From: an uncultured Alphaproteobacteria bacterium
GTDB taxonomy: Bacteria; Pseudomonadota; Alphaproteobacteria; RF32; CAG-239
Assembly (NCBI GenBank): GCA_934229625.1
Contig: CAKQDU010000003.1
Coordinates: forward strand, 64,426-128,425
Direction of reading: 5' to 3'
Length of the DNA: 64,000 nt
Shown: in pieces, positions 7,651 to 38,114 of the stretch
Layout of the letters: each line of letters opens with the position of its first letter
Numbering within the stretch: the first letter of the stretch is position 1
Position numbers and translations under genes: made by a program
The notes under the pieces: model-generated
Database searches by the model: none
Told to the model about the DNA's origin: nothing
The model's input: only the letters and a program-made list of their open reading frames with translations

Positions 7651-7773
7651 TAAAAAACAGCAAAAAAACGGCTGATACACTATAGTGATACACCAAAGGA
7701 ATTTTCAGCACTTCCCCCTGTTTTATGTTTTTATGAATCACCGCAATACTTATCCACAGAAAAGGATTGCATT

Positions 7774-9543: not shown

Positions 9544-9598
9544 TAATTTATTGATTGTTCAGGATTAAAATTCTTTAAGGAAGAAATTTTCCCAAATA

Positions 9599-11923
9599 TC
9601 ATTTTTTAATTTCAAAAGAATATATGGCATTTTGTTCATATATAATATCTAAAAAAGATGACATTGTTATAGATATTTCTTTATTTGTTGTATATTCAGG
9701 ATTAAATAAATCATCAAATTTTTTATCACCCTTTAACTCTATTTCTTTTACTTTCATATCTTTTACACCTGTTTTGCATAAACTAACTTTACTTTTATCA
9801 ATAAATAAAATTGTATTTTTTTTAGCAAAATTTTTATGAAATAAATAATCATCTTTACTAACGTTTATTGTTCCATTTCCAATTTTTATTTTCTCCGCTC
9901 CTATCGGTGCATCATTCATAATTATTCGTTCTATTGGAAAGGCTTTTAATAAAATAGCCTTAGCAGCACTAAAGTTGGTTATAATACAATAATCCGATAA
10001 ATTTTGTGCTGTAATTTCATCAACTGATGAAATTTTTTTTGATATACTTCGTAATTTTTGAAAAAGTTGCCCATACATTTTTTCTTCTAACATACGATAT
10101 ATTTGTTGTTCAAAATCATCATATACTATCAAACGCCCTTTTTCTTTAGTTATTGTAATATTTCCTAAAGCCATTTTGAGAGCAATTGCAGGTATTTCTT
10201 TTTTAACTCCAAATATCCTATTTATAACATTGTCTGGCACTAAAGCATCATACAAATCTTGTTTCAACTCTTTAATTTCAGATATTTGTTTTTGAGATAA
10301 TTTTGAGTTCAAAATATTTTTTCTTCTCATATCCATTTTTTGATGTAATAAGATGATTTGGCCTATTATATAATTTTTATAACTATCATTTATTTGAAAT
10401 GTACTTACAAGTTCTTCATTAGAAAAGAAATCATCCAGAATTTTTTTTATTTTTTCTATATTATTTAAATAGTTAAAAAATAACTCTTCATTAGTTAAAT
10501 GATTAACAAAATCTTGAGAACTATTAGAATATCTACTTATTTCAGTTTGTATATATTGTTGTCTAAAATCATTAACATTCAATTGTTTTAATTTATCCAT
10601 TTTATCTTTTGCATTACACAAAAAAATGAATAGTGTATAAAATATATATCTTTCCGATTGTTGATTTTTACTAAATACCTGATTCTGAGAAAATGAAGAA
10701 TCTTTGCATAAATAACAATTAAATATTTCATCAATATAACGAGGCATTTGCGGGAAACTATATTCGGAATGATTTTCTTTAGGTGTTTCATAATACATAT
10801 AATCGTATGCTTCCTTATACTTACCTTTATATATTAAATATGAAATTATTTGAGTATTCAACTTCAACATCTGTATTTTATCTATTTCGTCAGAATGTAT
10901 ATAATTCTTTATAATATCTTGCCACAATGTTAGTAAACTAAACGGAAAATTATCGTCAATTAGTACTGTAATTACTTGAAAAACTATCACATTTGGGTGC
11001 ATAAGTTTTCTATTTACATTATCTATAATATTAGGAAAAACATTTTTGTAATATTTATTCAGAATATAATAAAAATCAAATAATGATATTATATCATCAT
11101 GTGAAATATTACATTTATCTAATTTATACATAAATTTTTGTACACAACTTTTTATAATTGCGTCTTCAACATAAAATGAATTTGTATGCTTCCACTTTAA
11201 TAACGCGTTATCTAATAATTCATATTGCATAGTAAAAATAATATTTGCAATTTCTTGTTTAGATAAATTAACCCCACGTTGAAAAATATAAGTCATAATT
11301 TCCAATGGTCTAAAGAGATATTCATTTTCTCTATTTAAGCATACAAAATTATGCTCAAATTTATGCTCATTCCAACTAATATTGTTTTTAAATATATCGT
11401 ATATATATGTAGTAGCGGTCGTAAACAAACTTAAATCGTCTTGATATTGTATTGAGTGAATAGCAATCATTTGTAATAATTCTAAATCTTCATTTTTTGC
11501 ATCAGGTGTTAATACAATATTTTTCACTTTGAAGATTTCTTCAGGATTATTGTAATATTGATATAAGATTCTAAAAGAATAATAACTGAAACATATACTA
11601 AATATAGAAAATATAAAGTTTGGTATCAGTATCAATATATAATATTCACTATCCAATAAAGGCAATAATATTATAGAAAATAAATTTATAATTAAAGTAG
11701 ATGTAATAAACTGAAAGTAATAATGTATATAAAATTTTTTATCTAATTTTGTTATAAAAATTTGCGATATATCTTTAAGACTTTTTGTCGTTTCAAATAT
11801 TTTAGGATAAACAAAAGCAACTAACCCAATATTGATAGTTAATAAGGCTGTTAATATAGTTAAAATATCATCTAAAGAAATCACAGATTGATTTTCATAA
11901 AATAGTTGAATTGACATTTGCAA
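9599..11923 (-). CDS. Large hypothetical protein (774 aa): N-terminal multi-pass membrane region plus a large soluble domain
   Basis: Hydrophobic helices in the first ~130 aa (ILTILTALLTINIGLVAFVY..., LIINLFSIILLPLL..., ILILIPNFIFSIFSICF). No Walker or other catalytic motif recognised. Very AT-rich. It lies directly downstream of the MTase-nuclease pair on the same strand. Confidence 0.5.
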   Translation of the reverse strand: MQMSIQLFYENQSVISLDDILTILTALLTINIGLVAFVYPKIFETTKSLKDISQIFITKLDKKFYIHYYFQFITSTLIINLFSIILLPLLDSEYYILILIPNFIFSIFSICFSYYSFRILYQYYNNPEEIFKVKNIVLTPDAKNEDLELLQMIAIHSIQYQDDLSLFTTATTYIYDIFKNNISWNEHKFEHNFVCLNRENEYLFRPLEIMTYIFQRGVNLSKQEIANIIFTMQYELLDNALLKWKHTNSFYVEDAIIKSCVQKFMYKLDKCNISHDDIISLFDFYYILNKYYKNVFPNIIDNVNRKLMHPNVIVFQVITVLIDDNFPFSLLTLWQDIIKNYIHSDEIDKIQMLKLNTQIISYLIYKGKYKEAYDYMYYETPKENHSEYSFPQMPRYIDEIFNCYLCKDSSFSQNQVFSKNQQSERYIFYTLFIFLCNAKDKMDKLKQLNVNDFRQQYIQTEISRYSNSSQDFVNHLTNEELFFNYLNNIEKIKKILDDFFSNEELVSTFQINDSYKNYIIGQIILLHQKMDMRRKNILNSKLSQKQISEIKELKQDLYDALVPDNVINRIFGVKKEIPAIALKMALGNITITKEKGRLIVYDDFEQQIYRMLEEKMYGQLFQKLRSISKKISSVDEITAQNLSDYCIITNFSAAKAILLKAFPIERIIMNDAPIGAEKIKIGNGTINVSKDDYLFHKNFAKKNTILFIDKSKVSLCKTGVKDMKVKEIELKGDKKFDDLFNPEYTTNKEISITMSSFLDIIYEQNAIYSFEIKK

Positions 11924-12026
11924 ACCTGTATTATTATTTAATCCTATTACATAATATAAAAAAACACCACCTATACAAGCAACAGGTAATGTTTTTTAAC
12001 AAATATCTTTTTATTTTACTTAAATT

Positions 12027-13127
12027 CTACACATCACTTTTGCGTCGGTTGCAGTCTCGGCATAACATTTGGCAATTATCTATTGTTGTATGTCCACCTT
12101 TTGCGTACGGCGTAATGTGGTCTGCTTCCATTTCTGAAATATCAAAATGCTTGCCGCACTTTTTACAATTTCCGTTTTGCCTTTCATAGACAGTTCTTTT
12201 TTCACTATCCTTAAATGCTCTAATACTTAAACATTTTTCATCGCCCGACAGCACATATTCATATATACCCTTTTTAGAAGTTATCTCATCAAATTCATCT
12301 TTCATAAGTGTAGAAATCTGTTCTTCAATTTTTTTAGGGTCTAAATCTGCATCTTTATACTTGTTATATAACAGTCCCCACTTTTGACCTTTCATCTCTT
12401 TTCGGTATTTAGTGAAGATTGTTTCTATCCAATTTATTACTGATTGATAATATTCTTTAAGTTCTCTGGCTGTATGCTCTTGTTGGTGTATTCCCATATA
12501 ATCATCAATAGATTTAATGCCGTCTCTTTGCCTTATCCAATCTAAAACAGTTTCCAGATAGTCTTGCCTTATTGGTGTGCCGGTCATATATTTTTCACCA
12601 ATTTTATACGCTATGCAATTAGACTTACTAAAATATTTTTTAGCATCACTTAACCATTCACCGGTAAAGATAGCGTTTCTTAATTCTTGGTCAGTTAATT
12701 CTATTCCGGCAATATTGATTATTTTAAACCAATCCAATTTTTCACTATCCTTTCCCTCGCAAATATAAACCATCAATTCATAGTCCAATATTTTATCTTG
12801 TTCATCATTTTGCAGAGTATAGAAAAATTTACCATCTACAGAGAAATTACCTTCTAAATATTCGCAAATACTTATTGTTCGCTGCTGACCGTCAAGGAGT
12901 TCATAAGTACCATCTTCATTTAGACACCAATACATAACATTTAGAGGGAAACCTTTTTTGACAGTATTGATTACTTCTATCTTATTTTTATCGCCATAAA
13001 TATATTCTCTTTGGTATTTTGGTCTGATATTTAATTTGCCGCTATAACCGACAACCCCTTCTTCATCATTGTTTATATAACCGTCATAAACATCTCTGAT
13101 TTTGATTCTGTGTAATTCAATCTTCAT
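12027..13127 (-). CDS. DUF262 (ParB/GmrSD-like N-terminal domain) plus C-terminal HNH nuclease
   Basis: N-terminal IRPKYQREYIY and LLDGQQRTISI motifs are typical of DUF262. The C-terminal region CKKCGKHFDISEMEADHITPYAKGGHTTIDNCQMLCRDCNRRKSD is a canonical HNH (His-Me) motif. Confidence 0.7.
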   Translation of the reverse strand: MKIELHRIKIRDVYDGYINNDEEGVVGYSGKLNIRPKYQREYIYGDKNKIEVINTVKKGFPLNVMYWCLNEDGTYELLDGQQRTISICEYLEGNFSVDGKFFYTLQNDEQDKILDYELMVYICEGKDSEKLDWFKIINIAGIELTDQELRNAIFTGEWLSDAKKYFSKSNCIAYKIGEKYMTGTPIRQDYLETVLDWIRQRDGIKSIDDYMGIHQQEHTARELKEYYQSVINWIETIFTKYRKEMKGQKWGLLYNKYKDADLDPKKIEEQISTLMKDEFDEITSKKGIYEYVLSGDEKCLSIRAFKDSEKRTVYERQNGNCKKCGKHFDISEMEADHITPYAKGGHTTIDNCQMLCRDCNRRKSDV

Positions 13128-13128
13128 A

Positions 13129-14217
13129 TTATTTTTTCCTTCTAATTAAAACTCTGGCGTAAATGCTTGAATATAATTCCCCTGTTTCTACATCTTTAAA
13201 TGCTGGCGTTTTATCTTTAATTTGATTAAATTTTCTATAAAGAGTACCTTTCGCATTATATGTGAATTTTCCTGTCCCATTTCCATTTTTATCTAATATT
13301 TCCATCTTTTTATTATTAGTAAATTCGCAACTTCCAACTATTCCTAAATCAACAATTTCAAATTGGTCAGGACTATACTTATCTAAAAATGTAATAGGTA
13401 CCCCCATCACTCCATCATAATCCATAGGTATATCACTTGTTTTATCTACATTGATAGCATTATAATTTTCGTAATGAGGATATTCTTCCGGTGTATATTT
13501 TTTATATAAATCTAAATCTTCGTGTCTTTTTGTTGTTTCAATATTTGTATACCATACAACACCTGAAACACGAATCATTCCTTCTTTATGGTCTCCGGCT
13601 GTTGCATAATCTTCATAATATGGATTGATAAAATGTCCTGCACCACCTTTAAAGCCATATCCTAACCATATCTTGTTTTCTTTTATAAGTTTGAATATTT
13701 CCCTATATGTAATAGCATTTTGATGTCCTATAATTAAAAATTTTTTATTATATTTAATCAACTGTTCTACATACTCTCTAAACAATGAAAATGGTGGATT
13801 TGTAATAACAACATCTGCTTCTTTTAATAATTCAATACATTCATCACTTCTAAAATCACCATCACCCTTTAGAGACTTAACGCCAATTTCTTCTATATCA
13901 GGTACCCTGTTGCTATTTTTATCACCATAATATTCCAAATATACCGCTTGTTCGCTGTCATTTTGAGAAAATAAATCCATATTTTTGTTTTTATAACAAG
14001 TAGTAATCAGTTTTTTCAAACCTAAATGTTCAAAAGAATAACTGAAATAATGAAAAAAATTACTAACCCGCGGGTCATCACAATTACATAAAACAGTCTT
14101 GCCTTTTAAAAATGATTTGTAATGTTTCAGTTCATTTTCAATATCACAAAGTTGAGTATAAAACTCATCTTTTTTATTTCTTTTCGCTTGTTTTAAATTG
14201 TCATTTGCCATCTTCAT
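13129..14217 (-). CDS. N6-adenine DNA methyltransferase, EcoRI-methylase family
   Basis: From memory, the N-terminus (KQAKRNKKDEFYTQLCDIENELKHY...CDDPRVSNFF) and the motif IV VVITNPPFSLFREYVEQLIKYNKKFLII match M.EcoRI-type methylases. The stop is 1 nt from the start of the nuclease gene, so the two form an operon. Confidence 0.65.
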   Translation of the reverse strand: MKMANDNLKQAKRNKKDEFYTQLCDIENELKHYKSFLKGKTVLCNCDDPRVSNFFHYFSYSFEHLGLKKLITTCYKNKNMDLFSQNDSEQAVYLEYYGDKNSNRVPDIEEIGVKSLKGDGDFRSDECIELLKEADVVITNPPFSLFREYVEQLIKYNKKFLIIGHQNAITYREIFKLIKENKIWLGYGFKGGAGHFINPYYEDYATAGDHKEGMIRVSGVVWYTNIETTKRHEDLDLYKKYTPEEYPHYENYNAINVDKTSDIPMDYDGVMGVPITFLDKYSPDQFEIVDLGIVGSCEFTNNKKMEILDKNGNGTGKFTYNAKGTLYRKFNQIKDKTPAFKDVETGELYSSIYARVLIRRKK

Positions 14218-14236
14218 AAATGTCCGTTTATGAAGA
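14211..14236. promoter_or_regulatory. 26-bp hix-like palindrome overlapping the MTase start codon
   Basis: TCTTCATAAATG-TC-CGTTTATGAAGA: 11/12 matching half-sites around a 2-bp core. The MTase ATG (14215-14217, minus strand) lies inside it. Confidence 0.4.
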
Positions 14237-14311
14237 CATTCAAATAAGTATTTTTAATATCTTTATTTGAATCTTTGGAACAGCACGGATTTCCTCAGAT
14301 TTATTTTATTC

Positions 14312-14339
14312 TTGCAACTAAATTGCTATGTGTTATTAT
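14312..14339 (+). promoter_or_regulatory. Sigma70-like promoter (TTGCAA-16-TATTAT) inside a segment bracketed by an 11-bp inverted repeat
   Basis: ttgcaa ctaaattgctatgtgt tattat. It lies between the 11-bp inverted repeats at 14220-14230 and 14360-14370, and points toward the recombinase gene at 14425. Confidence 0.35.
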
Positions 14340-14424
14340 GCTAAAAAATTTATATCAACTAAACGGACATCTATTTTATATAGTCTTTTGATAAATACTT
14401 ATGTAATATCAAAGGATTATTAAA

Positions 14425-15021
14425 ATGATTTATTCTTACATTAGAGTCAGTTCAGACCAGCAAAATTGCGCCAATCAAAAATATGAGGTGGAATGTTATG
14501 CCGCTAAAAATAACATAACCATTAATGAGTACATTGAAGAAACAATATCTTCCAGAAAACCGCTTAAAGACAGAAAATTAGGCAAATTATTAAATAAACT
14601 TTCAAAAGGAGATATTGTTATCAGTACCGAAATATCCAGACTTGGGCGAAATATGTTAGAGGTTATGGGAATTTTACAAACTTGTTTAGAAAAAGATTGT
14701 GAGATAATAACCATAAAAGAAAACTATCATCTTGGGGCGGATATTCAGTCCAAAGTTTTGGCGTTTGCATTTTCTCTTGCCGCTGAAATTGAGCGTCAAC
14801 TTATTTCTCAACGCACAAAGGAATGCCTTAAACGCTTAAAAAATGAGGGTAAACATCTTGGCAGACCTTATGGTTTTACATACAAAAAACTAAAAAAGAA
14901 ACACAATAAGATAATTGATTTACTTAATAAAAAAGTATCCAAAGCGGAAATTGCTCGGCTGATGGGGTGTTCGTGGGCAACATTGCATAGATACATTAAA
15001 GAATGCTGTATAATCTCTTAG
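14425..15021 (+). CDS. Serine recombinase (resolvase/invertase family)
   Basis: N-terminal catalytic motif YIRVSSDQQ. Resolvase core ...LGRNMLEVMGIL.... C-terminal HTH (AEIARLMGCSWATLHRYIK). Confidence 0.8.
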   Translation: MIYSYIRVSSDQQNCANQKYEVECYAAKNNITINEYIEETISSRKPLKDRKLGKLLNKLSKGDIVISTEISRLGRNMLEVMGILQTCLEKDCEIITIKENYHLGADIQSKVLAFAFSLAAEIERQLISQRTKECLKRLKNEGKHLGRPYGFTYKKLKKKHNKIIDLLNKKVSKAEIARLMGCSWATLHRYIKECCIIS

Positions 15022-15575
15022 TGTGCTTGTTTATTCAAATATCCATAAACAGTCGGGCGTGTAATGTTAAATTGTCGGGCAATTTGGGCTATCGGTAAAC
15101 CTTGGTCGGCAAGTTTATTCAATTCTGCAACTTGCGCATCTGACAGTTTATTTTTACCGCCTTTGTATTTACCTTTTGCTTTAGCAATAGCCACGCCTTC
15201 TCTTACACGTTGATTGATGAGTTCTCGTTCCAACTGTGCTACCGCGCCAAGCATTGTCATCATCAGTTGTTGGTACGGGTCTTTTTTATCTGGAGAAAAA
15301 GTCAAATTCTCCTTATGAAAAATAACAGTCGCTCCGAGTTTGTTAATTTCTTCCACCAGATTCAACAAATCACGCGTGTTTCGTGCTAATCTATCCATTG
15401 AATGCACATTTACAATGTCGCCTTGTCTTAAATTGCTCATCATTGCCTGCAATTCCGGTCTATCGGTATTCTTACCCGATAATTTGTCTTCATATTCTCT
15501 ATCGCACGCAACGCCGGCTAATTGTCTTTCCGTATTTTGCACAACAGTTGAAACTCTTTTATAATTAAAAATCAT
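15018..15575 (-). CDS. Serine recombinase, Hin/Gin/Pin-like DNA invertase
   Basis: YKRVSTVVQNTERQ catalytic region, DRLARNTRDLLNLV, C-terminal HTH IAQIARQFNITRPTVYGYL. 185 aa. Overall similarity to the Gin/Hin family. Confidence 0.8.
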   Translation of the reverse strand: MIFNYKRVSTVVQNTERQLAGVACDREYEDKLSGKNTDRPELQAMMSNLRQGDIVNVHSMDRLARNTRDLLNLVEEINKLGATVIFHKENLTFSPDKKDPYQQLMMTMLGAVAQLERELINQRVREGVAIAKAKGKYKGGKNKLSDAQVAELNKLADQGLPIAQIARQFNITRPTVYGYLNKQAH

Positions 15576-15790
15576 AGTAAAGTCCTTTTATGTAAAATCA
15601 TCATTTATAATGCTATTTTACATTACTCAAAAAGTGTAAAATTGTCAAGCATTTTAGTTTACATTTTACACTTTTATAAATGTATATTCTGACTACTGTC
15701 TGATTTTCCATTTTTCTAATAATGATTCATTATATTTTAAAAAGAATCGCGTATTATGCTACTAATTAAAAATATCAAAAGGCTTATACA

Positions 15791-16780
15791 ATGGAACAAC
15801 AAGGCGAAATCATTATTTACCAGTCGGCTGACGGCAAAAATAAACTGGATGTAAAATTAGAAAATGAAACTGTTTGGCTTTCTCAATCTCAATTAGTTGA
15901 CTTATACCAAACCAGCAAATCAAACATCAGCGAGCATATAAAAAATATTTTTAATGAGGGTGAACTATCGGCCGATTCAGTTGTTCGGAAATTCCGAACA
16001 ACTGCCGCAGACGGTAAAAATTATTCAACGCAATTTTACAATCTTGATATGATTATTTCCTTAGGGTACCGCATAAAGTCTTCTATTGCCACCCAGTTCC
16101 GCATTTGGGCAACCGAACGCATAAAGGAATATATCATCAAAGGATTTACCATTGATGACGAACGTTTAAAACAAAACGGCGGCGGAAATTATTGGAAAGA
16201 ATTGTTAGACCGCATCAGAGATATCCGCTCCTCTGAAAAAGTTTTATACCGTCAGGTTTTGGATTTATACGCCACAAGTTATGATTATAATGCCAAAGCA
16301 CCGGAAACTATTGAATTTTTTAAAGTTGTCCAAAATAAATTACATTTTGCCGCGCACGGTCATACAGCATCAGAAGTTATATATGAACGTGCAAATGCCG
16401 ATAAGCCTTTTATGGGATTAACCACATTTTCCGGCGACCTGCCAACTAAAGCCGAAGCCAAAATTGCTAAAAATTATTTAAGCGAAAAAGAATTAAAGGT
16501 GCTGAACAATCTTGTTTCCGGATATTTTGACTTTGCAGAAATCTATGCCGTTCGTCACGAACATTTATATATGAAAGATTATCTTAAACAGTTAGACAAC
16601 ATTTTATCGGCAACCGGAGAAAACGTCTTACAAGGCGCAGGTAAAATCAGTCATCAAAAAGCAATGGAAAAAGTTGAGGCTGAATATAAAAAATATCAGG
16701 AAAAGACCTTAACTCCGATAGAACAAGCATATTTGGAAAACTTGAAAAGTTTGGAAAAAAAGATAGAAGACAAAAAATAA
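15791..16780 (+). CDS. rhuM: RhuM-family protein (virulence-associated / Fic-neighbourhood DNA-binding protein)
   Basis: N-terminal IIYQSADGKNKLDVKLENETVWLSQSQLVDLYQTSKSNISEHIKNIF...YNLDMIISLGYRIKSSIATQFRIWATE. Characteristic RhuM-family block. Confidence 0.7.
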   Translation: MEQQGEIIIYQSADGKNKLDVKLENETVWLSQSQLVDLYQTSKSNISEHIKNIFNEGELSADSVVRKFRTTAADGKNYSTQFYNLDMIISLGYRIKSSIATQFRIWATERIKEYIIKGFTIDDERLKQNGGGNYWKELLDRIRDIRSSEKVLYRQVLDLYATSYDYNAKAPETIEFFKVVQNKLHFAAHGHTASEVIYERANADKPFMGLTTFSGDLPTKAEAKIAKNYLSEKELKVLNNLVSGYFDFAEIYAVRHEHLYMKDYLKQLDNILSATGENVLQGAGKISHQKAMEKVEAEYKKYQEKTLTPIEQAYLENLKSLEKKIEDKK

Positions 16781-16825
16781 ACGCTTTTTTTTGATTTTCA
16801 GAGAATGTTTATCCATTACCAAAAA

Positions 16826-16875
16826 TCTAAAAAGCGGGGTTTGCGGAAAATAAAAGTAGGAAATAACAAAAAACA
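16826..16875. repeat. 50-bp direct repeat, copy 1 (copy 2 at 18748..18797)
   Basis: atctaaaaagcggggtttgcggaaaataaaagtaggaaataacaaaa compared with atctaaaaagcggtgttggcgtaaaataaaagtaggaaataacaaaa. Each copy is followed by a different hairpin. Confidence 0.6.
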
Positions 16876-16940
16876 GCACATTTCTGCGCTGTTTCATACA
16901 ACATTTGTAAAAGACTTCAATTTGTTTTTCACATAAGTAT

Positions 16941-17504
16941 TTATCTTGCCGGATATAAAATTGCACCGCGGTCAATTAAATAATTCGCAATATCCAACTC
17001 CATTTTTGCCAAAGCCGTGGTTAGCGGTGTTTGTGCCTGAACATTTAGCCAATTTATGTCCGCTCCCTCATTTATCAAATATGCCACGCCATTCAATTTT
17101 TGTTCTTTCGTCATATTATCATTTAATATCAACAAAATAAGCGCATTATTTCCAAACACATCAGTACGATATACAGAGGCTCCGTTATTCACTAAAAACT
17201 CCGGAATTTCCATATCCGTACACATATAACATGCCATTAAAAATAGTGAAGCGTGGCGGGCATTTATGGAATCATCTATGTTAAAATCTGGATTTTCTTC
17301 CAACATATTTTTGATTTCATCCATATCGTTAATGTTAAAACACTCGTCAACTTCATCATTATAAGGACGATAAACCGGAACTGTCTTCAAGCGTTTTTCT
17401 AAAGCGTCTAATTTTTTACGAATAGCCGGAAGTTGTTCCACCGGCACATATTTAATATAAGTATTATCAAAATTTGCGTTCATATACTTCCCCTTTGCTT
17501 TCAA
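16941..17504 (-). CDS. Hypothetical protein with C-terminal ankyrin repeats
   Basis: ...NGASVYRTDVFGNNALILLI...VAYLINEGADINWLNVQAQTPLTTALAKMELDIANYLIDRGA: 2-3 ankyrin repeats. Confidence 0.55.
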   Translation of the reverse strand: MKAKGKYMNANFDNTYIKYVPVEQLPAIRKKLDALEKRLKTVPVYRPYNDEVDECFNINDMDEIKNMLEENPDFNIDDSINARHASLFLMACYMCTDMEIPEFLVNNGASVYRTDVFGNNALILLILNDNMTKEQKLNGVAYLINEGADINWLNVQAQTPLTTALAKMELDIANYLIDRGAILYPAR

Positions 17505-17632
17505 TTATATTTATTGGCAAAACCAACACCAGCCGCAAAATATAAAAAAGACACCGAATAAAATCCGATGCCTTATATAAAAGATAAAAGTTCTACGTCG
17601 AAAGCATATCAACGCATAACTATTTATCCTCT

Positions 17633-18199
17633 TTATACCGCCTTTTTGAATATTTTACTGTTTATATATGATGGTGTTTCAATCCTCTTTTTATTGAAAT
17701 GCATGTCTTTTTCACAATCGTTGGAATTTATATAATCCAAGCATTTATCAATATCATATATGGCTTCAAATTTGTGAGAGGCTTTCGGATAAATGTCTTT
17801 AAACAGCCTTTGAATAAAGCCTAAAAATATGGATAATTCAGTAATATCTAAACAATTGATGATAAAATGTATATGATTTGATTTACCCTTTTGTTTTTCA
17901 ATAATTCCGGTCCAGTTGAACTGCAAATGTTTTAACTTTATCCATTTGCTACCATATTTCCACCTGTAATATCTTGCTAATATATATTTGAAATCATCTT
18001 CTAACTTAACTTCATCTACACCACAGTTGGGCTGAAGAGTGATAAACCATCGTCCGTTATTTGTTGTCAATGTTTTTGGCTTGTCAACATTCATATCAAT
18101 ATAGGTTGATTTTAATTTTCTCATCATTGATAATGGTTCTTGTGTAATTCTGTTCTGAAAAATATTGTGTATCATTGTTTTACAATCCTCTAATGCCAA
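17633..18199 (-). CDS. HUH-superfamily endonuclease-like protein (rolling-circle Rep / TnpA-like), 188 aa
   Basis: Three motifs in order: WFITLQPN (Rep motif I, FLTLT-like), SNHIHFIIN (HUH motif II), and SYINSKIFKK (Y-x3-K motif III). It is the last gene inside the island, just before attR. Confidence 0.45.
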   Translation of the reverse strand: MALEDCKTMIHNIFQNRITQEPLSMMRKLKSTYIDMNVDKPKTLTTNNGRWFITLQPNCGVDEVKLEDDFKYILARYYRWKYGSKWIKLKHLQFNWTGIIEKQKGKSNHIHFIINCLDITELSIFLGFIQRLFKDIYPKASHKFEAIYDIDKCLDYINSNDCEKDMHFNKKRIETPSYINSKIFKKAV

Positions 18200-18645
18200 T
18201 AATAAAATAAGAAAATTTAGCCAAAGTTTTTAATTCACCATTATTTTTTAAGGGTGTCATATTTTCTCTATTTTTGAGGTCTTTGCTAATACAAAGTAGG
18301 CATCTGCCATTCAGCGTATTATGCTTAAAGCATCTCTAACATCGGGAAGATAATGTTTAAAGATGCCATCTTCCCTTTGATATTTATTATGCCATATTAC
18401 ACTTTTTTATTGCAAAAATAAAATTAGTATTAGTGGTTAAAAATAATATTGACAAATAGAAATTTTTAAATACGGCAATACATCTGAAAAAAACATCAAT
18501 TCATAAAAATCAAAAAAAGCCTTGACGACTTATTTATCCTATGTTATTTGATTAAAAGTACTTATACACTTATTGACAATGTATTGTTAAGATTTAATAA
18601 AAATATAAAGCAATATCAGAGTGATGTTTAATTTTTAACTGGTCT

Positions 18646-18797: not shown

Positions 18798-18818
18798 CCT
18801 GAAAATAATAGGTCCTTT

Positions 18819-19094
18819 AAAATTATGTTGTTTACGTACCAATTCTGTAACAGCCTCACGCCATAAGTCAACCGCAAAATCAAAGCGTTATTATGATCGA
18901 AAGTGTGTAAAAAAAACGACCGTTTAAAATGGACAGTTTTTCGGCTGTTTTTTGCAGTATATCATAATTTATGAAAAATGCAATAACATTATAATTTTAC
19001 GCTATTTTTTATTGATTTTCAGATGTTTTTCCGCCTCCGATTCCGTTGTGTAAAAATAACGGTCGTTTTTTTTACACAATTGAGGAGGAATAAG
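18819..19094 (+). repeat. Conserved ~260-bp upstream cassette, copy 1 (copy 2 at 36148..36426)
   Basis: Module Y (aaattatgttgtttac...taacagcctcacgccataagtcaaccgcaaaatcaaag) plus module Z, ending in the Shine-Dalgarno site and ATG of the downstream gene. About 85% identical to copy 2 apart from a diverged central part. Confidence 0.8.
18904..19078. promoter_or_regulatory. Perfect 21-bp inverted repeats (TGTGTAAAAAAAACGACCGTT / AACGGTCGTTTTTTTTACACA) flanking a 133-bp segment
   Basis: Left arm at 18904-18924, right arm at 19058-19078. The identical arms recur at 36235-36255 / 36390-36410 around a 134-bp partially diverged spacer. Confidence 0.7.
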
Positions 19095-20480
19095 ATGTTT
19101 AACTATTTGAAAAAATATAACATATTCTGTAGTTTAAAGCTTTTTGTAGTTTTGTATGCAGTCAGTATGTTTTCTATTTCTGCGGAAGCCAAAATTTGTT
19201 TTTTACCGGACAGCAGCTGCGGCACCGGTAAAATAAGTTCCGTAAAGCCAAACCCGTCGCAATGTATTTATAGCAGCATGGCTCAAGCCCAAAATGGCAT
19301 ATCAAGCTGCGAAAAAGCGTATAAGCAAAATTTCTGCTTTTACAGACGCTGCAAAACCGAAGACAATAATATATTTGCAGACGAAGCAAGCTGCAAAAAG
19401 AAAGCCAAAGCTGATAATTTAATCTGCGTAAGCTGCGGCGGCTGCTATAAAGTTACGCCGAAAACATGCCCGAGTGGGTACACGGCAGGCTTAACCACCT
19501 GTGCGGAAAAAGCCGGCTATACTGCAAGTTATTCAAGCAACGGCTATGCCGGATATAGTGTCTGCGGCAAGTGCAAATATACCATAAAACCGTGTGAAAG
19601 CGGCTATACGGTAGGTTTGGCCAGCTGTCCGGAAAAACAAGGTTATACTTCGAACTATTCCCGAAACGGAGTTTCCGGCGAGCAGGTTTGCGGCAAGTGC
19701 GACTACACGGCAAAAGGCTGCGCCAGCGGTTATACGGCTGGTTTGACAAGCTGCAGCGAACGGCGCGGCTATAATGCAAGTTATGCCAGCAATGGGTATG
19801 CCGGGGAGTTGGCTTGCGGCAAGTGCGACTACACGGCAAAAGGCTGCGCCGGCGGTTATACAGCAGGTCTGACAAGCTGCAGCGAACGGCGCGGATATAA
19901 TGCAAGCTATGCCAGCAACGGGTATTCCGGCGAGAAAATTTGCGGAAAATGCGACTACACGGCAAGAACTTGTCCAGATGGATATTCTACAAAATATAGC
20001 AGCGTCAGCGCCTGCGGAGAAACAGGAAGCAACGGCTGGAATTATGCTAGCAACGGCTATTCTGGGGAAGCTGTGTGCGGAAAATGTACAAAGAAACCAT
20101 GTCCTAGTGGGTATTATTATTGGTTATATAGTGAAAATATTAAAGATATGTTTAAAAGACCTTGCAATACAAGTACAAGATGTCCGGCAGATAGCGGATA
20201 TTATGAATATTATGAATCTCCAGGGTTTGGTGTCTATTATAATATGTGTAAAAATTATGGCTTTTGGGGGAGAGTTGCCGGTCGTAGCGGAGATGGTATT
20301 TGTTTTAAGACGGGCGATCGTCCTTGTCCTAGTGGTACAATAGGAGGTGGTGCTTCTAAGGCAAGTGAATATTGTGAAAAGACTTATGGTAAAAAATACA
20401 GATATAGATATAGAGAGGTAAAAAATCCAGATGGTAGTGATATGTGTACAGGTTATGAGCATTGTTGGAAATGTTATTGA
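19095..20480 (+). CDS. Secreted cysteine-rich tandem-repeat protein (461 aa from the ATG at 19095)
   Basis: Strong Shine-Dalgarno site gaggagga before ATG 19095 (the ORF-track start at 19023 is a non-ATG start upstream). Signal peptide MFNYLKKYNIFCSLKLFVVLYAVSMFSISAEA. At least 6 copies of a ~40-aa unit: CGKCDYTAKGCASGYTAGLTSCSERRGYNASYASNGYAGE. Confidence 0.75.
   Translation: MFNYLKKYNIFCSLKLFVVLYAVSMFSISAEAKICFLPDSSCGTGKISSVKPNPSQCIYSSMAQAQNGISSCEKAYKQNFCFYRRCKTEDNNIFADEASCKKKAKADNLICVSCGGCYKVTPKTCPSGYTAGLTTCAEKAGYTASYSSNGYAGYSVCGKCKYTIKPCESGYTVGLASCPEKQGYTSNYSRNGVSGEQVCGKCDYTAKGCASGYTAGLTSCSERRGYNASYASNGYAGELACGKCDYTAKGCAGGYTAGLTSCSERRGYNASYASNGYSGEKICGKCDYTARTCPDGYSTKYSSVSACGETGSNGWNYASNGYSGEAVCGKCTKKPCPSGYYYWLYSENIKDMFKRPCNTSTRCPADSGYYEYYESPGFGVYYNMCKNYGFWGRVAGRSGDGICFKTGDRPCPSGTIGGGASKASEYCEKTYGKKYRYRYREVKNPDGSDMCTGYEHCWKCY
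19690..19930. repeat. Two near-identical tandem 120-bp DNA repeats inside the Cys-rich gene
   Basis: The run gcggcaagtgcgactacacggcaaaaggctgcgcc...gcaagttatgccagcaatgggtatgccgg is repeated with about 6 substitutions. Confidence 0.8.
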
Positions 20481-33248: not shown

Positions 33249-34130
33249 ATGGAACAATTAAACAACTTGGATGTGGTGTTTTTGGTAATTGTCGGCGTTT
33301 CGGCGTTAGTTGCAATCGCCCGCGGTGTTACAAAAGAATTGCTGTCCATCACCGGATGGCTTTTAGCCGGTGTCTCGGTTTATTATTTATTGCCTGTTGT
33401 TGACCCAATTATGAAAAAATATATAGCCTCAGATGTGCTGTCCAACCTTGTTTCCGGTATGGTTATTTTAATTATGTTCTGTATTTTTTGGGTGTTGGCA
33501 GCCGACAAAATCAGTACGCAGATTCGTTTTAGCAAGCTTAGTTCGTTGGACCGTATCTTAGGCTTTATTTTTGGTATTTTCCGCGGCGTGATTATTGTAA
33601 TTTTGCTCCAGATTATGATTTCATCGTTGATTCCTGAAGAATCGCAAAAAGGTGTATTTGCAGAATCTCGCTATTTTAAACTTGCCGGAGATGCTTCCGG
33701 ACCGATTAAAGGTCTAATTCCGGAAAAATGGTTTGATGATTTGAAGGCAAAAGGAGAAAGTTTGGGTTTCGGTATTGTTAAAACAGAGGAAACTGAAGCT
33801 GATAAAGATAAAGAAAACACATCTAAGGCAGAAGATTCTAAGGATAAAACTCTTACTGAGGAAAATTCTTCCGACAATATTGGCAATGCGGCTGAGGTTG
33901 CCGGCGATGTTTTGAAGAAAAGCGGTGAGGAATTGTTTAATAAGCTTGCACAGCCAAAGCCTGAGGGAGAAAATAAATCTCAGGATGAAGGTTATAAAAA
34001 TGATGAAACATCGGATTTGGATAAACTCATGGATGAGTTGGAGGACAAGGTTGTGACAACCGATGAAAATTCGGCTCCGGTGAAAAATGACACTCCTAAA
34101 GAAATTAAAAAAATAGATGAAAAATTATAA
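33249..34130 (+). CDS. cvpA: CvpA-family membrane protein with an acidic/K-rich C-terminal extension
   Basis: LDVVFLVIVGVSALVAIARGVTKELLSITGWLLA...LDRILGFIFGIFRGVIIVILL matches CvpA (colicin V production protein). The radA-cvpA adjacency is a common conserved arrangement. Confidence 0.7.
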   Translation: MEQLNNLDVVFLVIVGVSALVAIARGVTKELLSITGWLLAGVSVYYLLPVVDPIMKKYIASDVLSNLVSGMVILIMFCIFWVLAADKISTQIRFSKLSSLDRILGFIFGIFRGVIIVILLQIMISSLIPEESQKGVFAESRYFKLAGDASGPIKGLIPEKWFDDLKAKGESLGFGIVKTEETEADKDKENTSKAEDSKDKTLTEENSSDNIGNAAEVAGDVLKKSGEELFNKLAQPKPEGENKSQDEGYKNDETSDLDKLMDELEDKVVTTDENSAPVKNDTPKEIKKIDEKL

Positions 34131-34197
34131 TTCCGGAATATTCATCAATAATTAAGGATAAGCCTCTGTTGTTTTTTGCATACAGAGGCTTATCAAT

Positions 34198-35028
34198 CTA
34201 AAATCCTACAGATATGTCGCAGTTTGTTTTTCCATCGCATACATCGCAGGCAGCTTTCATTTTAGCAAGAGTTGCATCACGTAAGCATTGAACATCAGGA
34301 GTGCAGAATTTATCGCCAGCAAAAATCTCGGTTGTCGGATTATGGTGCAGCCAAACTTTGTATGCTGCGGAATGCAGAGGATAGAATAAATCCTTAAATA
34401 GTGTCAGGCAGGTTTGTTTAGAAAAACCTTCCGAAACATTTTTTCCGTCGTCATTTTGGCGATATCCGCCGATGTTAACGCTAAATCCAAGTTCATTGTT
34501 GCGTGAAAATAAGGCTATTAAATTACCATTTGAATCCCATATACGAAATGTATCCATTTTTTCCCAGGTTGGCGGAATGAGGCCTGAAGCTTGTAAAACA
34601 TCCACAACTCCGACGGTTGATGAAGTCGGATTAAGATATTTCAAAGTATCAACATGTTCAAGCATACCATGCAAAAGAAAGGTATATTCATCTATCATCT
34701 TATCTATTTTCCACTTTTCCATCGCTTTGGAATATCCAGCGATACCGCCCACGCTTAGCACTCCAACAATGGCCAATACGCCGAGCATTTCAATCATTGA
34801 CCGACCGGCTGAAACCGCGTATAGCGGCGCATCTAAAGCGGTTTTACGCTGTCTCAAAAAATTCATGTACCTCCAATGTACACTAGGATTTTTCTCGCAG
34901 CTAGAAACCACTTTATCTACACCGCTCTCCGCAGTTTTGAAGATTTTTAAGGCGTATTGACGCACAACATCCAAACCCTTTAATGTGATGTTGTTTCCTT
35001 CGGCGTCATTGCGAGCAACGCGAAGCAA
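34198..35028 (-). CDS. Prepilin-like secreted protein, paralog 1 (start uncertain)
   Basis: Class-III (type IV prepilin-like) segment ...AVSAG|RSMIEMLGVLAIVGVLSVGGIAGYSKAM with Glu at +5. Conserved leader block GFGLLRVARND. Cys-framework C-terminal domain. The ORF-track start at 35028 is TTG. The in-frame region stays open upstream as far as the (AG)7 tract. Confidence 0.6.
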   Translation of the reverse strand: MLRVARNDAEGNNITLKGLDVVRQYALKIFKTAESGVDKVVSSCEKNPSVHWRYMNFLRQRKTALDAPLYAVSAGRSMIEMLGVLAIVGVLSVGGIAGYSKAMEKWKIDKMIDEYTFLLHGMLEHVDTLKYLNPTSSTVGVVDVLQASGLIPPTWEKMDTFRIWDSNGNLIALFSRNNELGFSVNIGGYRQNDDGKNVSEGFSKQTCLTLFKDLFYPLHSAAYKVWLHHNPTTEIFAGDKFCTPDVQCLRDATLAKMKAACDVCDGKTNCDISVGF

Positions 35029-35147
35029 TCCAAAACCTAGACCAGAAACGTCCGTCTGTTTCGTTCTGAACTTGTTATTTCCGAATGTGTGATTTTTTAC
35101 GCCGAACTCTGCAAAAACACGCTGAGCGGCAGAAAATACGCCTTTAA

Positions 35148-35204
35148 TCAGATGTTTAGGATTTGCAGAGAGAGAGAGAGACCTTTGAATAGCTTATTTT
35201 TCAT
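35148..35204 (-). other. 18-codon mini-ORF with a strong ribosome-binding site that runs through the (CT)7 tract and stops out of frame
   Basis: On the minus strand: tttagAGGAAAgaaagATGaaaaataagctattcaaaggt(ct)7gcaaatcctaaacatcTGA. Deleting one CT unit fuses this ATG in frame with the prepilin-like ORF. Confidence 0.6.
35167..35180. repeat. (AG)7 dinucleotide tract upstream of pilin-like 1 (identical tract at 36097..36110 upstream of pilin-like 2)
   Basis: Read directly. It is embedded in a ~120-bp module (…ctgcaaaaacacgctgagcggc…gatgtttaggatttgc(ag)7acctttgaatagcttatttttcatctttctttcctctaaa) that is conserved at both loci. Confidence 0.9.
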
Positions 35205-35304
35205 CTTTCTTTCCTCTAAAATTATATTGTTTACACTCTAATTCTATAACAGTCTTTTTTCATAAGTCAACCGGAAAAATCAAAGCGTTAGAATTGTGTT
35301 GCAT

Positions 35305-35970
35305 CTATTTTTTAAAACGAAATACAACATTGCATATATTGGTATTTCTTAGACACTCTTTACAGCTTTCGGTTATTTCAGGCATTGTAAGGTCTTTTAG
35401 GCATTTATACGTATCGTCATATTCTTCCATGTTTTGACATTCTGTAATAAAATGCGGAGCCGTTTTTCCTCCAGATGAATGAGAAGTGTTTTGTGGTGAA
35501 ATAAAATCTATACTACTATACATACCTTTAGCTAAATCTTTAATCAATGTAATGCAAAGTTCTTTTGAATAATCGGAAGATTTTTTATCATTGCTGAAGA
35601 TATTGATATCTACAATAAGAGTATTTTTTATGTTTATATATGGTGCCACTTTGTTTCCTAAAGTATCGGTTATATATATATTTGTAACTTCTTGCCATGT
35701 TTGAGGTACAAAGTTTAAGTCTTTTATAATTTGAGCTAAATACATAGGACGTTCTTTGTTATTTTTGATTAAATCATCTTTATACGATAATAAATCAGTA
35801 ATCATAAAACTATATTCTTCTATTGTTTTATTGACCTTAAATTTTTCCATAGCTTTGGAATATCCAGCGATACCGCCGACTGATAGAACGGCAATAATTG
35901 CCAGTACGCCGAGCATTTCTATCATAGAGCGTCCCACGCTGCAAACGTTATTGCGAGCAACGCGAAGCAA
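35305..35970 (-). CDS. Prepilin-like secreted protein, paralog 2 (start uncertain)
   Basis: ...SGLLRVARNNVCSVG|RSMIEMLGVLAIIAVLSVGGIAGYSKAM. C-terminal Cys framework (C...KCLKDLTMPEITESCKECL...CN). The ORF-track start is TTG. Confidence 0.6.
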   Translation of the reverse strand: MLRVARNNVCSVGRSMIEMLGVLAIIAVLSVGGIAGYSKAMEKFKVNKTIEEYSFMITDLLSYKDDLIKNNKERPMYLAQIIKDLNFVPQTWQEVTNIYITDTLGNKVAPYINIKNTLIVDINIFSNDKKSSDYSKELCITLIKDLAKGMYSSIDFISPQNTSHSSGGKTAPHFITECQNMEEYDDTYKCLKDLTMPEITESCKECLRNTNICNVVFRFKK

Positions 35971-36096
35971 TCCAGACCCCTTTATAGAGTTGCTACTGAA
36001 TGTGTTATTTTCGAATGTGTGATTTTTTGCGCCAAACTCTGCAAAAACACGCTGAGCGGCGAAAAATGCGCCTTTAATCAGATGTTTAGGATTTGC

Positions 36097-36110
36097 AGAG
36101 AGAGAGAGAG
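36097..36110. repeat. (AG)7 dinucleotide tract upstream of pilin-like 2
   Basis: Same module as 35167..35180. The same upstream mini-ORF and ATG (36132-36134 on the minus strand) are one repeat unit out of frame with the pilin-like 2 reading frame. Confidence 0.9.
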
Positions 36111-36147
36111 ACCTTTGAATAGCTTATTTTTCATCTTTCTTTCCTCT

Positions 36148-36426
36148 AAAATTATGTTGTTTACACTCCAATTCTATAACAGCCTCACGCCATAAGTCAA
36201 CCGCAAAAATCAAAGTGTTTTTTTAGGTTAAAAGTGTGTAAAAAAAACGACCGTTTAAAATGGACAGTTTTTAGGCTGTTTTTTATAGTCTAGCAAAGGT
36301 TGCCGGAATTTGCAATAACTTTTTATATTTGCGATGTTTTTTGCTGTTTTTACAACATTTTATTGCCGTCTGTTTCGCTGTGTAAAAATAACGGTCGTTT
36401 TTTTTACACAATTAAGGATAAATAAG
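36148..36426 (+). repeat. Conserved upstream cassette, copy 2, carrying the 21-bp inverted repeats (36235-36255 / 36390-36410)
   Basis: See copy 1 (18819..19094). It ends in the Shine-Dalgarno site aaggataaataag and the ATG of pilin-like 3. Confidence 0.8.
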
Positions 36427-37158
36427 ATGTTTAAGAGTATAGAATTTTTCAAAGGAAAGAGCAGGGGCGTGGGGTTTGGATTGCTTCGTCGTTACACTCC
36501 TCTCAATGACCTTTGCAGCGTGGGACGTTCCATGATAGAAATGCTCGGAGTTTTAGCCATTATCGGAGTGCTGAGCGTAGGCGGTATCGCCGGATATTCT
36601 AAAGCCATGATGAAATGGAAAATAAACAAAATGATAGAAGATTATACCATGCTGATGACTGGTTTAATGGAATATCAGGAAAGTTTATTTAAAACATATG
36701 CAGATTATGACAATAGATTTTTGGCTCAGTTTATTATAGACGCTAAACTGGTGCCGGAAACTTGGAAACAGGAAAATGAGTATTCGATAAATGATTCTCT
36801 TGGCAACAGAATTACACCATATGTTGATACAAAAGAAACAGGTGCTGCATTTACTGCTGATATATACATTGTGCCAAATGGAATAAATAAAGATTCGGAA
36901 TATGCTTATCAACTATGCGTAGCTTTAGCAAAAGATGTTGTTTATCCGCTAGCTGCAAATATGGGGTATGCATCATTATTTATTACAAATGATGCAATTA
37001 CTAACAGAAGTGGCTATATGGTTTATGCAAATAGTTGTTCCGATGCGGAAGTTAACAGGGTGAAATGTCTGTCGGAAATGACGTTGGCGGAAATTAGTAC
37101 AATCTGTAAATCCTGTGTAAAAAAAGCTCCTTGCAATGTTGGAATGAGTTGGAGATAA
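36427..37158 (+). CDS. Prepilin-like secreted protein, paralog 3
   Basis: ATG with Shine-Dalgarno site. MFKSIEFFKGKSRGVGFGLLRRYTPLNDLCSVG|RSMIEMLGVLAIIGVLSVGGIAGYSKAMMKWKINKMIEDY. C-terminal Cys framework ...C..L.KD....C...KCLSEMTLAEISTICKSCVKKAPCNV. Confidence 0.7.
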   Translation: MFKSIEFFKGKSRGVGFGLLRRYTPLNDLCSVGRSMIEMLGVLAIIGVLSVGGIAGYSKAMMKWKINKMIEDYTMLMTGLMEYQESLFKTYADYDNRFLAQFIIDAKLVPETWKQENEYSINDSLGNRITPYVDTKETGAAFTADIYIVPNGINKDSEYAYQLCVALAKDVVYPLAANMGYASLFITNDAITNRSGYMVYANSCSDAEVNRVKCLSEMTLAEISTICKSCVKKAPCNVGMSWR

Positions 37159-37265
37159 TGGCACATTTTTTGCCAGTCTGACTAATATTTGTTAAATAAA
37201 AAAACTTTCATTACAAATTGCTGTACACAATCTGTGATGAAAGTCTTTATTAAAGATACTTGGCG

Positions 37266-38114
37266 TTATTTGCCCATCAATTCTCTGTGGTCACAGCTGC
37301 GATAAATGAGCCATTTGTAAATGGACAGCATTTTCTCGTTTCCGGCAACAGCAAAATCCTCAGGATGCCATTGCACACACAAAATACCATCATCCATATT
37401 GCCCCAAGCTTCTGGAATGCAATCAGATGAAATCGCGTAAATATCCAAATCGCTGTTCTTGTCATCCGGTATAACTCCTTCACGATGGCGGGAATTTACT
37501 GTAATTTTCTTACCTAACCACGCGCGGAGCGGAGTAGCCGGATAAATAATAACCTGATGAGCATTGACTTCAGAAGTCTTGTGTTCAATAGACGAACGAG
37601 TTTCGTTCAGGTTACGGTACAGCTTCATGCCGTGAACACCTGCCACCATCTGAGCGCCTGCGCAAATACCTAAGATAGGAATTGCGTTTTCTTCGGCCAC
37701 GCGGATAGCTTCAATATACGCCTTAGAACGAAGACTCGGTTCTTCAGGACTGTTAACGCGGGTTGCGTAGAATTCATCCGGAGAAACAAACGCTCCGCCA
37801 GGCAGAACAAGTCCGTCAATTTCAGCCATTTGGGTTTCTACTTGAGTATAGGTTAAACCCATGATGCGTCCGCCGGCCATGCAGATTGCCTTAGCGTAGT
37901 TGTAGTCTATAGAATAGTGTCCTTTCTCGCGTCCCAGCAAAAAACCGATTGTCGGAGCATCTGCATCATAGTCAAGTCCTAGTTCTTGCATTTCATCCCA
38001 GGGAAACAGAATTACAGGAAAATCGCCTTGTGCAATAACCTGATTTACTTTTTCGTCTGAAATTACATACGCGTTAAACTGAGGCTCATAAGCCAAATAT
38101 AAAACCTTTTGCAT
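37266..38114 (-). CDS. Class-I glutamine amidotransferase-like hydrolase (peptidase C26 / gamma-glutamyl-GABA hydrolase PuuD-like), paralog A
   Basis: …LPGGAFVSP… and ILGICAGAQM (nucleophile Cys) and …WHPED (His) match the C26/PuuD family. 282 aa. It has a paralog at 46827..47684 with the same motifs. Confidence 0.7.
   Translation of the reverse strand: MQKVLYLAYEPQFNAYVISDEKVNQVIAQGDFPVILFPWDEMQELGLDYDADAPTIGFLLGREKGHYSIDYNYAKAICMAGGRIMGLTYTQVETQMAEIDGLVLPGGAFVSPDEFYATRVNSPEEPSLRSKAYIEAIRVAEENAIPILGICAGAQMVAGVHGMKLYRNLNETRSSIEHKTSEVNAHQVIIYPATPLRAWLGKKITVNSRHREGVIPDDKNSDLDIYAISSDCIPEAWGNMDDGILCVQWHPEDFAVAGNEKMLSIYKWLIYRSCDHRELMGK

Follow-up and report, generated by a model that had tools for sequence, protein, structure and literature searches.

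A probable CT-repeat phase switch on type IVb-like pilin genes of an uncultured gut alphaproteobacterium

Phase variation by slippage of short repeats is, to our knowledge, known mainly from a few cultured pathogens. The opa genes of Neisseria, which encode outer-membrane adhesins, carry a pentameric CTCTT repeat. The leaders of type IVb prepilins are about 13–30 residues long, and we know of no case in which the type IVb pilins CofA (colonization factor CFA/III of enterotoxigenic Escherichia coli), TcpA (Vibrio cholerae) or PilS (Salmonella Typhi) are switched by intragenic repeats. In Helicobacter pylori, CT repeats in the signal-peptide coding region switch outer-membrane proteins, those of oipA and also of sabA and babA (PMC10564699). 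Each gonococcal genome holds 11 phase-variable opa genes, and pilins are varied by pilE/pilS gene conversion in Neisseria and by inversion in Moraxella bovis (PMC11868660). Here we analyse a stretch of 64,000 nucleotides from an uncultured alphaproteobacterium of the RF32 lineage (assembly GCA_934229625.1, contig CAKQDU010000003.1, positions 64,426 to 128,425; hereafter, the window), in which two adjacent minus-strand genes, A and B, are preceded by near-identical modules that carry a (CT)7 tract shortly after a start codon. We consider it very likely that A and B are two independently switchable pilin genes, each controlled by a slipped-strand switch in its CT tract. A search of the literature found no earlier description of this pilin CT-switch system.

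By alignment, the module is about 215 bp long and occurs in two minus-strand copies, at about 36215–35985 (A) and 35285–35060 (B), that are near-identical from a -35-like hexamer to about 130 nt past the tract. In both copies, the ATG opens eight codons (MKNKLFKG) that are followed by (CT)7. The first-pass annotation, which was made from the letters of the window, had described a Shine-Dalgarno (SD) sequence, an ATG and an 18-codon mini open reading frame (mini-ORF) running through the tract in both copies, and all of these elements are in place. The features of the two modules and of the genes that belong to them are as follows, with the slash marking the putative prepilin cleavage site.

36171..36200, minus strand: promoter-like site of module A, TTGACT-N18-TAGAAT, from a consensus scan, kept in copy B; putative function
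36135..36145, minus strand: SD sequence AGGAAAGAAAG of module A, abutting the ATG, read directly and unchanged in the related copies listed
36078..36134, minus strand: mini-ORF of module A, 18 codons in the 7-unit (OFF) state, ATG at 36134, from frame arithmetic
36097..36110, minus strand: (CT)7 tract of gene A (AG7 on the plus strand), the putative switch, from a repeat scan
35305..36096, minus strand: gene A, a leader of 54 codons after the tract and a type IVb-like pilin with a 208-residue mature part; G/RSMIEML site at 35932-35934
35241..35270, minus strand: promoter-like site of module B, TTGACT-N18-TAGAAT, from a consensus scan and alignment with copy A
35205..35215, minus strand: SD sequence AGGAAAGAAAG of module B, abutting the ATG, read directly
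35148..35204, minus strand: mini-ORF of module B, 18 codons in the 7-unit (OFF) state, ATG at 35204, from frame arithmetic
35167..35180, minus strand: (CT)7 tract of gene B (AG7 on the plus strand), from a repeat scan
34198..35166, minus strand: gene B, a leader of 120 codons after the tract and a pilin-like mature part of 201 residues; G/RSMIEML motif at 34781-34806
36427..37158, plus strand: third paralog, which has no CT tract, with AAGGA-N8-ATG and a 33-residue leader, MFKSIEFFKGKS...CSVG/RSMIEML; homologs P0028, P0032 and P0070

The two (CT)7 tracts are the only dinucleotide tracts of at least 6 units in the window, and 100 dinucleotide-preserving shuffles of the window yielded none. With 7 units, the ATG opens an 18-codon ORF, MKNKLFKGLSLSLQILNI, ended by a TGA just past the tract; with 8 units, the ORF has 16 codons and ends at a TAA; with 3, 6, 9 or 12 units, the ATG is fused to the full ORF, which encodes 273–279 residues in gene A and 332–338 in gene B. 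The layout is that of phase-variable genes, with a repeat that lies inside the frame after the start and a change of unit number that toggles between the full ORF and an early stop. This arithmetic agrees with the claim of the first-pass annotation that 6 or 9 units, and not 7, join the ATG to the prepilin-like ORF, and the frame after the tract, which it had reported to be open through to the gene, is indeed so in both copies. In the related copies L049, L050 and L008, the promoter-like site reads TTGACT-N17-TATAAT.

For comparison across assemblies, DNA was collected via a pattern just downstream of the tract, which is blind to tract length; the resulting set comprises 19 loci in three uncultured gut Alphaproteobacteria metagenome-assembled genomes (MAGs) and 24 metagenome contigs. 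A census of 61 distinct instances, with a relaxed pattern that takes in the variant copies CCTGAACA and CCTAAGCA, gives 6 units in 8 instances, 7 in 37, 8 in 14 and 9 in 1, and the spacing between the ATG and the tract is 24 nt in all 61. The heterogeneity of 6, 7 and 8 units for which the first-pass annotation had proposed to search related genomes was thus found, including alleles with identical flanks:

rpsI-pilin-pilin-sulfatase locus, gene 1: 6 units (L053) versus 7 (L058, L063), flanks identical at 300/300 positions upstream and 1000/1000 downstream
rpsI-pilin-pilin-sulfatase locus, gene 2: 8 units (L053) versus 6 (L054), flanks identical at 1300/1300 positions
second ortholog group: 6 units (L051) versus 8 (L016), flanks identical at 1298/1300 positions
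Fic-pilin-TrcR locus: 6 units (L049) versus 7 (L008), 8 mismatches in 1087

The last of these loci also has a 9-unit allele (L050), only about 95% identical to the 6- and 7-unit alleles. Gene 2 of the rpsI locus has 7 units in L058, and across samples the two adjacent genes of this locus show the combinations (6,8), (6,6), (7,7), (7,6) and (7,8). At the locus of the window, the ortholog of gene B is a 7-unit allele in L001-L003 and L068 and an 8-unit allele in L066 and L067, and one and the same gene is called in frame (P0124) on 19 contigs and out of frame (P0122) on at least 23. When the conceptual 6-unit fusion was used as the query of a protein search, the matches included many full-length proteins that start with MKNKL(F/S)KGLSLSANPKHLIKG, that is, with 6 units, as well as 9-unit proteins with LSLSLS (P0007, P0020, P0022 and P0024) and a 12-unit protein with LSLSLSLS (P0042); the proteins starting with MKNKL carry widely differing C-terminal domains. 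Long products from the predicted ATG are thus reported by gene callers in many metagenomes at 6, 9 and 12 units. As far as consensus assemblies show, the tract appears to be hypervariable while its flanks stay constant.

Among 46 distinct leaders (144–654 nt), the frame that leads to the pilin contains no stop codon in 15,156 nt, against 272 and 435 in the other two frames, and in all 46 the cleavage motif shares its frame with the first codon after the tract. Given that the leader frame is open in every one of these copies at any tract length, translation from an upstream start has been selected, and the module ATG is the sole start in that position. The leader peptide seems to be nearly free of constraint other than that of staying open, as would suit a stretch that is removed once it has been translated. 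In the first 31 leader codons, the proportion of synonymous differences (pS) is 0.15 and the ratio of nonsynonymous to synonymous proportions (pN/pS) is 0.85, the conservation of the first five leader residues being partly imposed by the search pattern, whereas in the first 31 codons from G(-1) into the alpha-1 helix, pS is 0.67 and pN/pS is 0.11. Hence, the gene bodies are old and constrained, and the 5' module is young or homogenised. The leader peptides of the two loci are similar, as the first-pass annotation had pointed out, but this similarity reflects identity of the DNA and not selection at the protein level.

Three 5' regions can precede the mature domain of gene A, namely the long leader in the window, a short one (MHKNFEKG/) in other strains at that locus (L066-L068) and another long leader at the rpsI-sulfatase locus, and P0001 is a mosaic of a gene B leader and a gene A body. 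The presence of the same mature domain behind differing 5' regions and in mosaics indicates that 5' regions and bodies recombine.

In L066 (7700-8000), the gene A allele has GGAGG-N8-ATG and MHKNFEKG/RSMIEML in place of the CT module. The approximately 300 bp upstream of this allele are unrelated to the module and end in a terminator-like hairpin, ccgcccgccattttggtgggttttgtttt; this region could be an uncharacterised leader RNA, and an Rfam scan of L066 detected tRNA only, with nothing at the upstream region. Long leaders contain recurring in-frame blocks, APVILGLVPRILLQRVSNLVNKLALLLHK, QDSRDKPENDG, TSPLAGEVGASLRVRG and AESGVDKVVSSCEKNPSVHWRY (in P0005, P0007, P0076, P0114, P0122 and P0124, and in L014, L018, L019, L024 and L048), which look like short dispersed repeats, perhaps mobile or akin to repetitive extragenic palindromes, that were inserted without a break of the frame. 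The DNA encoding GLLRVARND was considered as another dispersed repeat, and the pattern is absent elsewhere in the window.

The pilin signal G/RSMIEMLGVLAIIAVLSVGGIAGY is present in all three genes of the window and fits a Gly-ended leader, Glu at +5 and about 20 hydrophobic residues. Across 49 homologs, the motif is G/RSMIEMLGVLAII.VLSVGGIAGYSKAM with Glu at +5, and G55, E60 and the hydrophobic stretch are invariant. We place the processing site at the Gly because relatives with short leaders (MSNNSEKG/, MYKNGEKG/, MIGGQRG/ and MHKNFEKG/) start 7–10 residues before it. The mature part has the pilin fold, with a long N-terminal alpha-helix packed on a beta-sheet globular domain; the fold comparison also matches the minor pilins CofB and TcpB and other type IV pilins, lower in the list. 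There are 6 Cys residues in the mature part, of which C181 and C245 are invariant and C220, C232, C248 and C255 are present in at least 90% of the sequences. The identity with CofA, TcpA and PilS is only 10–12%, the Arg or His at +1 is unusual compared with these pilins, and a profile search of the PDB sequences gave no significant match.

Under the proposed mechanism, a constitutive-looking and presumably active promoter, together with a strong ribosome-binding site (RBS), would drive translation from the fixed ATG, and the ribosome would reach the (CT)n tract 24 nt later, where replication slippage would have added or removed CT units. Whenever n can be divided by 3 (6, 9 or 12), the ATG would be in frame with the long leader and the pilin, and a prepilin would be made; prepilin peptidase would then cut at G/RSMIEML and remove the leader with its variable Leu-Ser stretch, so that the mature pilin would be identical at any tract length. 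With 7 or 8 units, translation would end after 18 or 16 codons, at the stop that each wrong frame meets right after the tract, and the gene would be silent, which is the predicted state of both genes in the window. About 15 genes in this genome family appear to share one homogenised 5' module, and with that many switch-bearing genes a population could display changing subsets of pilin variants. Slippage as the cause of the length differences, the reversibility and rate of switching, and its biological benefit are what we infer from these patterns.

Several observations weigh against such a switch. Known prepilins have leaders much shorter than the 60–230 residues seen here, for which cleavage is presumed. 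Prepilin models hit the expected place but score below threshold (9.9–11.3 bits against a cut-off of 21.2 for PF07963, and 10.5–15.3 against 16.3 for TIGR02532), probably because Arg-Ser-Met stands where Phe-Thr-Leu is expected, and three Pfam batches detected no prepilin peptidase or pilus machinery in the window, where the matches are only to housekeeping, Bat, restriction-modification and island genes. All of the tract evidence compares consensus assemblies of different samples, and in these consensus sequences the ON state is rare: 3 of the 37 copies in the length-unbiased subset are in frame, and one MAG has 15 distinct copies, all of 7 or 8 units and hence out of frame. Gene A has 7 units in 5/5 assemblies, in a look-up by its short product P0002 that is ascertainment-biased, being able to return only OFF alleles, and that returned 7-unit alleles only. 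Furthermore, the long frame is not devoid of a start of its own, contrary to the first-pass annotation: both genes contain an in-frame TTG in GLLRVARN, which is the start picked by the ORF listing, and gene B has in addition an internal GGAGG-N3-ATG (MNFLRQRK...) 21 codons ahead of the cleavage site. These sites are candidates for some tract-independent expression.

If the pilins were made from these internal starts, that is, from the TTG in both genes or the GGAGG-ATG with its 21-residue leader in gene B, the upstream ATG, the tract and the mini-ORF would amount at most to a modulating upstream ORF in the 5' untranslated region. In-frame TTG and ATG candidates are present, the majority of the copies have 7 or 8 units, and the gene B segment MNFLRQRKTALDAPLYAVSAG/, with GGAGG 3 nt upstream, resembles an ordinary prepilin leader and recurs in P0001, P0023, P0043 and P0136. 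However, under an untranslated role neither the lack of stops over 15 kb of leader (0 versus 272 and 435) nor the in-frame state of 46/46 leaders of varied lengths would be maintained; the long form is called by gene callers whenever n is 6, 9 or 12, and the TTG lacks a consistent SD sequence in other copies, for example, AAAGAGTTCTGGATTG in L049. We thus regard exclusive use of internal starts as unlikely, although both routes could coexist. Somewhat less probable still is that the 7- and 8-unit copies form a reservoir of silent cassettes that are recombined into expression sites with short leaders, in the manner of Neisseria pilS and pilE, so that tract length would be of minor importance. 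The three 5' regions of the gene A mature domain, the P0001 mosaic and the much lower divergence of the 5' module than of the gene bodies (pS 0.15 versus 0.67) are in line with this idea, but each copy has its own promoter-like site, SD sequence and ATG, unlike pilS cassettes, and in-frame versions of the same loci occur in many samples. Cassette exchange is, moreover, compatible with the switch, such that it represents an added layer more than a rival.

Two explanations at the level of RNA appear very improbable, and to the same degree. Ribosomal or transcriptional slippage on the CU repeat might yield the full-length protein from 7- and 8-unit alleles, which predominate, and re-pairing by +2 or -2 is, by reasoning, sterically conceivable given that CUC and UCU codons repeat every 2 nt. 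Yet 7 and 8 units require opposite shifts, so that one programmed event cannot serve both, there is no stimulatory RNA structure (fold z-score +0.47; no Rfam match), and 6-, 9- and 12-unit alleles with identical flanks are what slippage of DNA predicts. Alternatively, the tract could pair with the purine-rich SD sequence AGAGGAAAG and mask it, tuning initiation gradually with length; the predicted pairing probability of the SD sequence does rise from 0.55 to 0.79 between 6 and 9 units, but the fold is no stabler than that of shuffled sequence, the effect is monotonic, without a period of 3, and the open leader frame is left unexplained. Being graded with n and no better than shuffles in fold, masking was rejected as the main mechanism. 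The idea of a known regulatory RNA was rejected as well: a scan of 33500-38000 against Rfam, at E values up to 1, gave a chance microRNA match only, and the fold z-score of the module is the +0.47 given above. The least credible proposal is that the length differences are errors of sequencing or assembly. Miscalls can occur in repeats, and the module is where many contigs break, but a 14-bp dinucleotide tract is short for Illumina error, and the states recur in many independent assemblies (19 and at least 23 contigs), some of them at 10-150x coverage by the contig names.

The slipped-strand switch, which we prefer to all of these explanations, would thus be a device that is itself already known, by its sequence features, from the CT switches of H. 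pylori and the multigene logic of Neisseria opa. The resemblance to oipA extends to the CT unit, its location in the 5' coding region of a leader or signal peptide that is removed, the shift of frame by slippage, the early stops in the wrong frames and a mature protein unaffected by the Leu-Ser residues (PMC10564699). The contingency-locus architecture claimed by the first-pass annotation is therefore apt, whereas the dinucleotide repeat that it presented as a new twist is not new, because oipA and sabA use CT repeats likewise in the signal-peptide coding region (PMC10564699). The cargo differs, being here a type IVb-like pilin whose signal is of class III (prepilin) and in H. pylori a Sec-exported beta-barrel, as do the distance of the tract from the cleavage site (60–230 codons versus a few), the setting (a near-identical 5' cassette on about 15 genes of an uncultured gut alphaproteobacterium) and the prevailing state, oipA being ON in the majority of strains whereas most copies here are OFF. 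With opa, the pilin genes share the organisation as a multigene family of surface proteins in which a repeat within the leader-coding part of each gene acts as the switch of that gene, most copies being OFF, but the Opa proteins are not homologous to these pilins. Compared with CofA, TcpA and PilS, the leaders are several times longer. As in pilE/pilS and M. bovis, pilin diversity draws on several genomic copies, here with one mature cassette behind differing 5' regions and with mosaics, and an element bounded by inverted repeats (IRs) beside the genes shows one inversion product, as in the M. bovis type of variation; unlike in pilE/pilS, the copies are complete genes with promoter-like site, SD sequence and ATG instead of promoterless cassettes, and the repeat tract decides between on and off. 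The features particular to this case are the type IVb-like pilin cargo, the unusually long neutral leader, the 5' cassette on about 15 genes and the uncultured gut host.

The IR-bounded element lies between the gene A module and the third paralog:

36236..36409, no strand assigned: perfect 20-bp inverted repeats, GTGTAAAAAAAACGACCGTT and AACGGTCGTTTTTTTTACAC, flanking 134 bp with a promoter-like site

A second copy occupies 18905-19077 of the window, the spacer being 133-134 bp across copies, and the element is also found in L001, L005, L008, L012, L019, L029, L038, L039, L047, L049, L050, L052 and L066-L068. On one side, it is followed by a gene with RBS and ATG (of the MFK... pilin type) in all assemblies but L038, and the other flank is usually a promoter region, CTTTGATTTT..TTGACTTATGG. 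We consider the element at 36236-36409 a candidate for recombination or inversion. It looks like an invertible promoter, yet it has one orientation relative to the RBS-ATG flank in at least 15 assemblies, and at the gene A locus the orientation is the same in all assemblies of that locus. A comparison of L038 1066-1910 with L050 2-427 and L008 6894-7738 shows that L038 consists of the reverse complement of the Fic-side flank and whole element of L050, at 99% identity, joined within the 20-bp IR to the promoter-side flank and CT-tract gene of L008. An inversion between the outer IRs of two adjacent elements, an estimated 8.5 kb or so apart, would be expected to give this arrangement, and this single co-assembly example suggests site-specific recombination that re-aims the internal promoter of the element.

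Next to the second copy of the element, at 18800-18905 on the minus strand, there is a relic of the module with the same promoter region and 5' untranslated region, TTGACTTATGGCGTGAGGCTGTTACAGAAT...AACATAATTTTA, in which a hairpin with a T-run, aaggacctattattttcaggtccttttgtt, replaces the SD sequence, ATG and tract, and which has no gene downstream. On the RBS side of this copy, the plus-strand ORF at 19023-20480, with a likely start at the internal ATG of MFNYLKKYN, has a Cys-rich product whose N-terminus resembles a signal peptide and which contains about 7 repeats of about 35 residues (C.SGYTAGLTSC.E..GY..SY.SNGY.GE..CGKC.YT); this protein has no Pfam match and is probably one more variable surface protein controlled by such an element. 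A probable genomic island spans 7528-18200 of the window, beside tRNA-Gln (7528-7601), and includes the following genes:

7774-9543: tyrosine recombinase with DUF6538
12027-13127: GmrSD/HNH endonuclease
13129-14217: EcoRI-type methyltransferase
15791-16780: RhuM
16941-17504: small ankyrin protein

The tyrosine recombinase is a candidate for acting on the IR elements. At 1407-4271 on the minus strand, the window encodes a 954-residue protein with many ankyrin repeats and MORN repeats. Such a eukaryote-like repeat protein is uncommon for a gut bacterium that lives freely, and it hints that the organism interacts with a host or a protist.

Many of the metagenome contigs (L027-L036, L040-L042 and L046) end within or beside the module. 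As a multi-copy repeat, the module breaks assemblies, so that MAGs of this lineage probably contain too few of its pilin genes or contain them in truncated form. The annotation of such genes calls for caution as well, given that they are routinely mis-called as short ORFs from internal TTG codons.

More tentatively, and with less confidence than we attach to the switch on genes A and B, the CT tract might belong, as a single layer, to a larger and so far undescribed system of variation in uncultured gut Alphaproteobacteria. Such a system would comprise a portable and homogenised promoter-SD-ATG-(CT)n-leader cassette on about 15 anciently diverged type IVb pilin genes per genome, leaders of 60–230 residues that tolerate in-frame repeat insertions, exchange of cassettes and IR recombination that re-aims a promoter. 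If true, this would be the largest phase-variable pilin repertoire known, and these would be the first prepilins shown to be processed from such long leaders; what a prepilin peptidase can accept is a question posed by the very long, nearly neutral leaders themselves. Already on the reading as a CT switch, a device otherwise familiar from pathogens would govern a repertoire of about 15 pilin genes in an uncultured, commensal-type gut alphaproteobacterium of the Hadza and other human cohorts, and its tract length would be a natural marker for following within-host population dynamics in metagenomic reads. Such a repertoire suggests strong fluctuating selection on the pili of these bacteria, be it by host immunity, phages or attachment sites.

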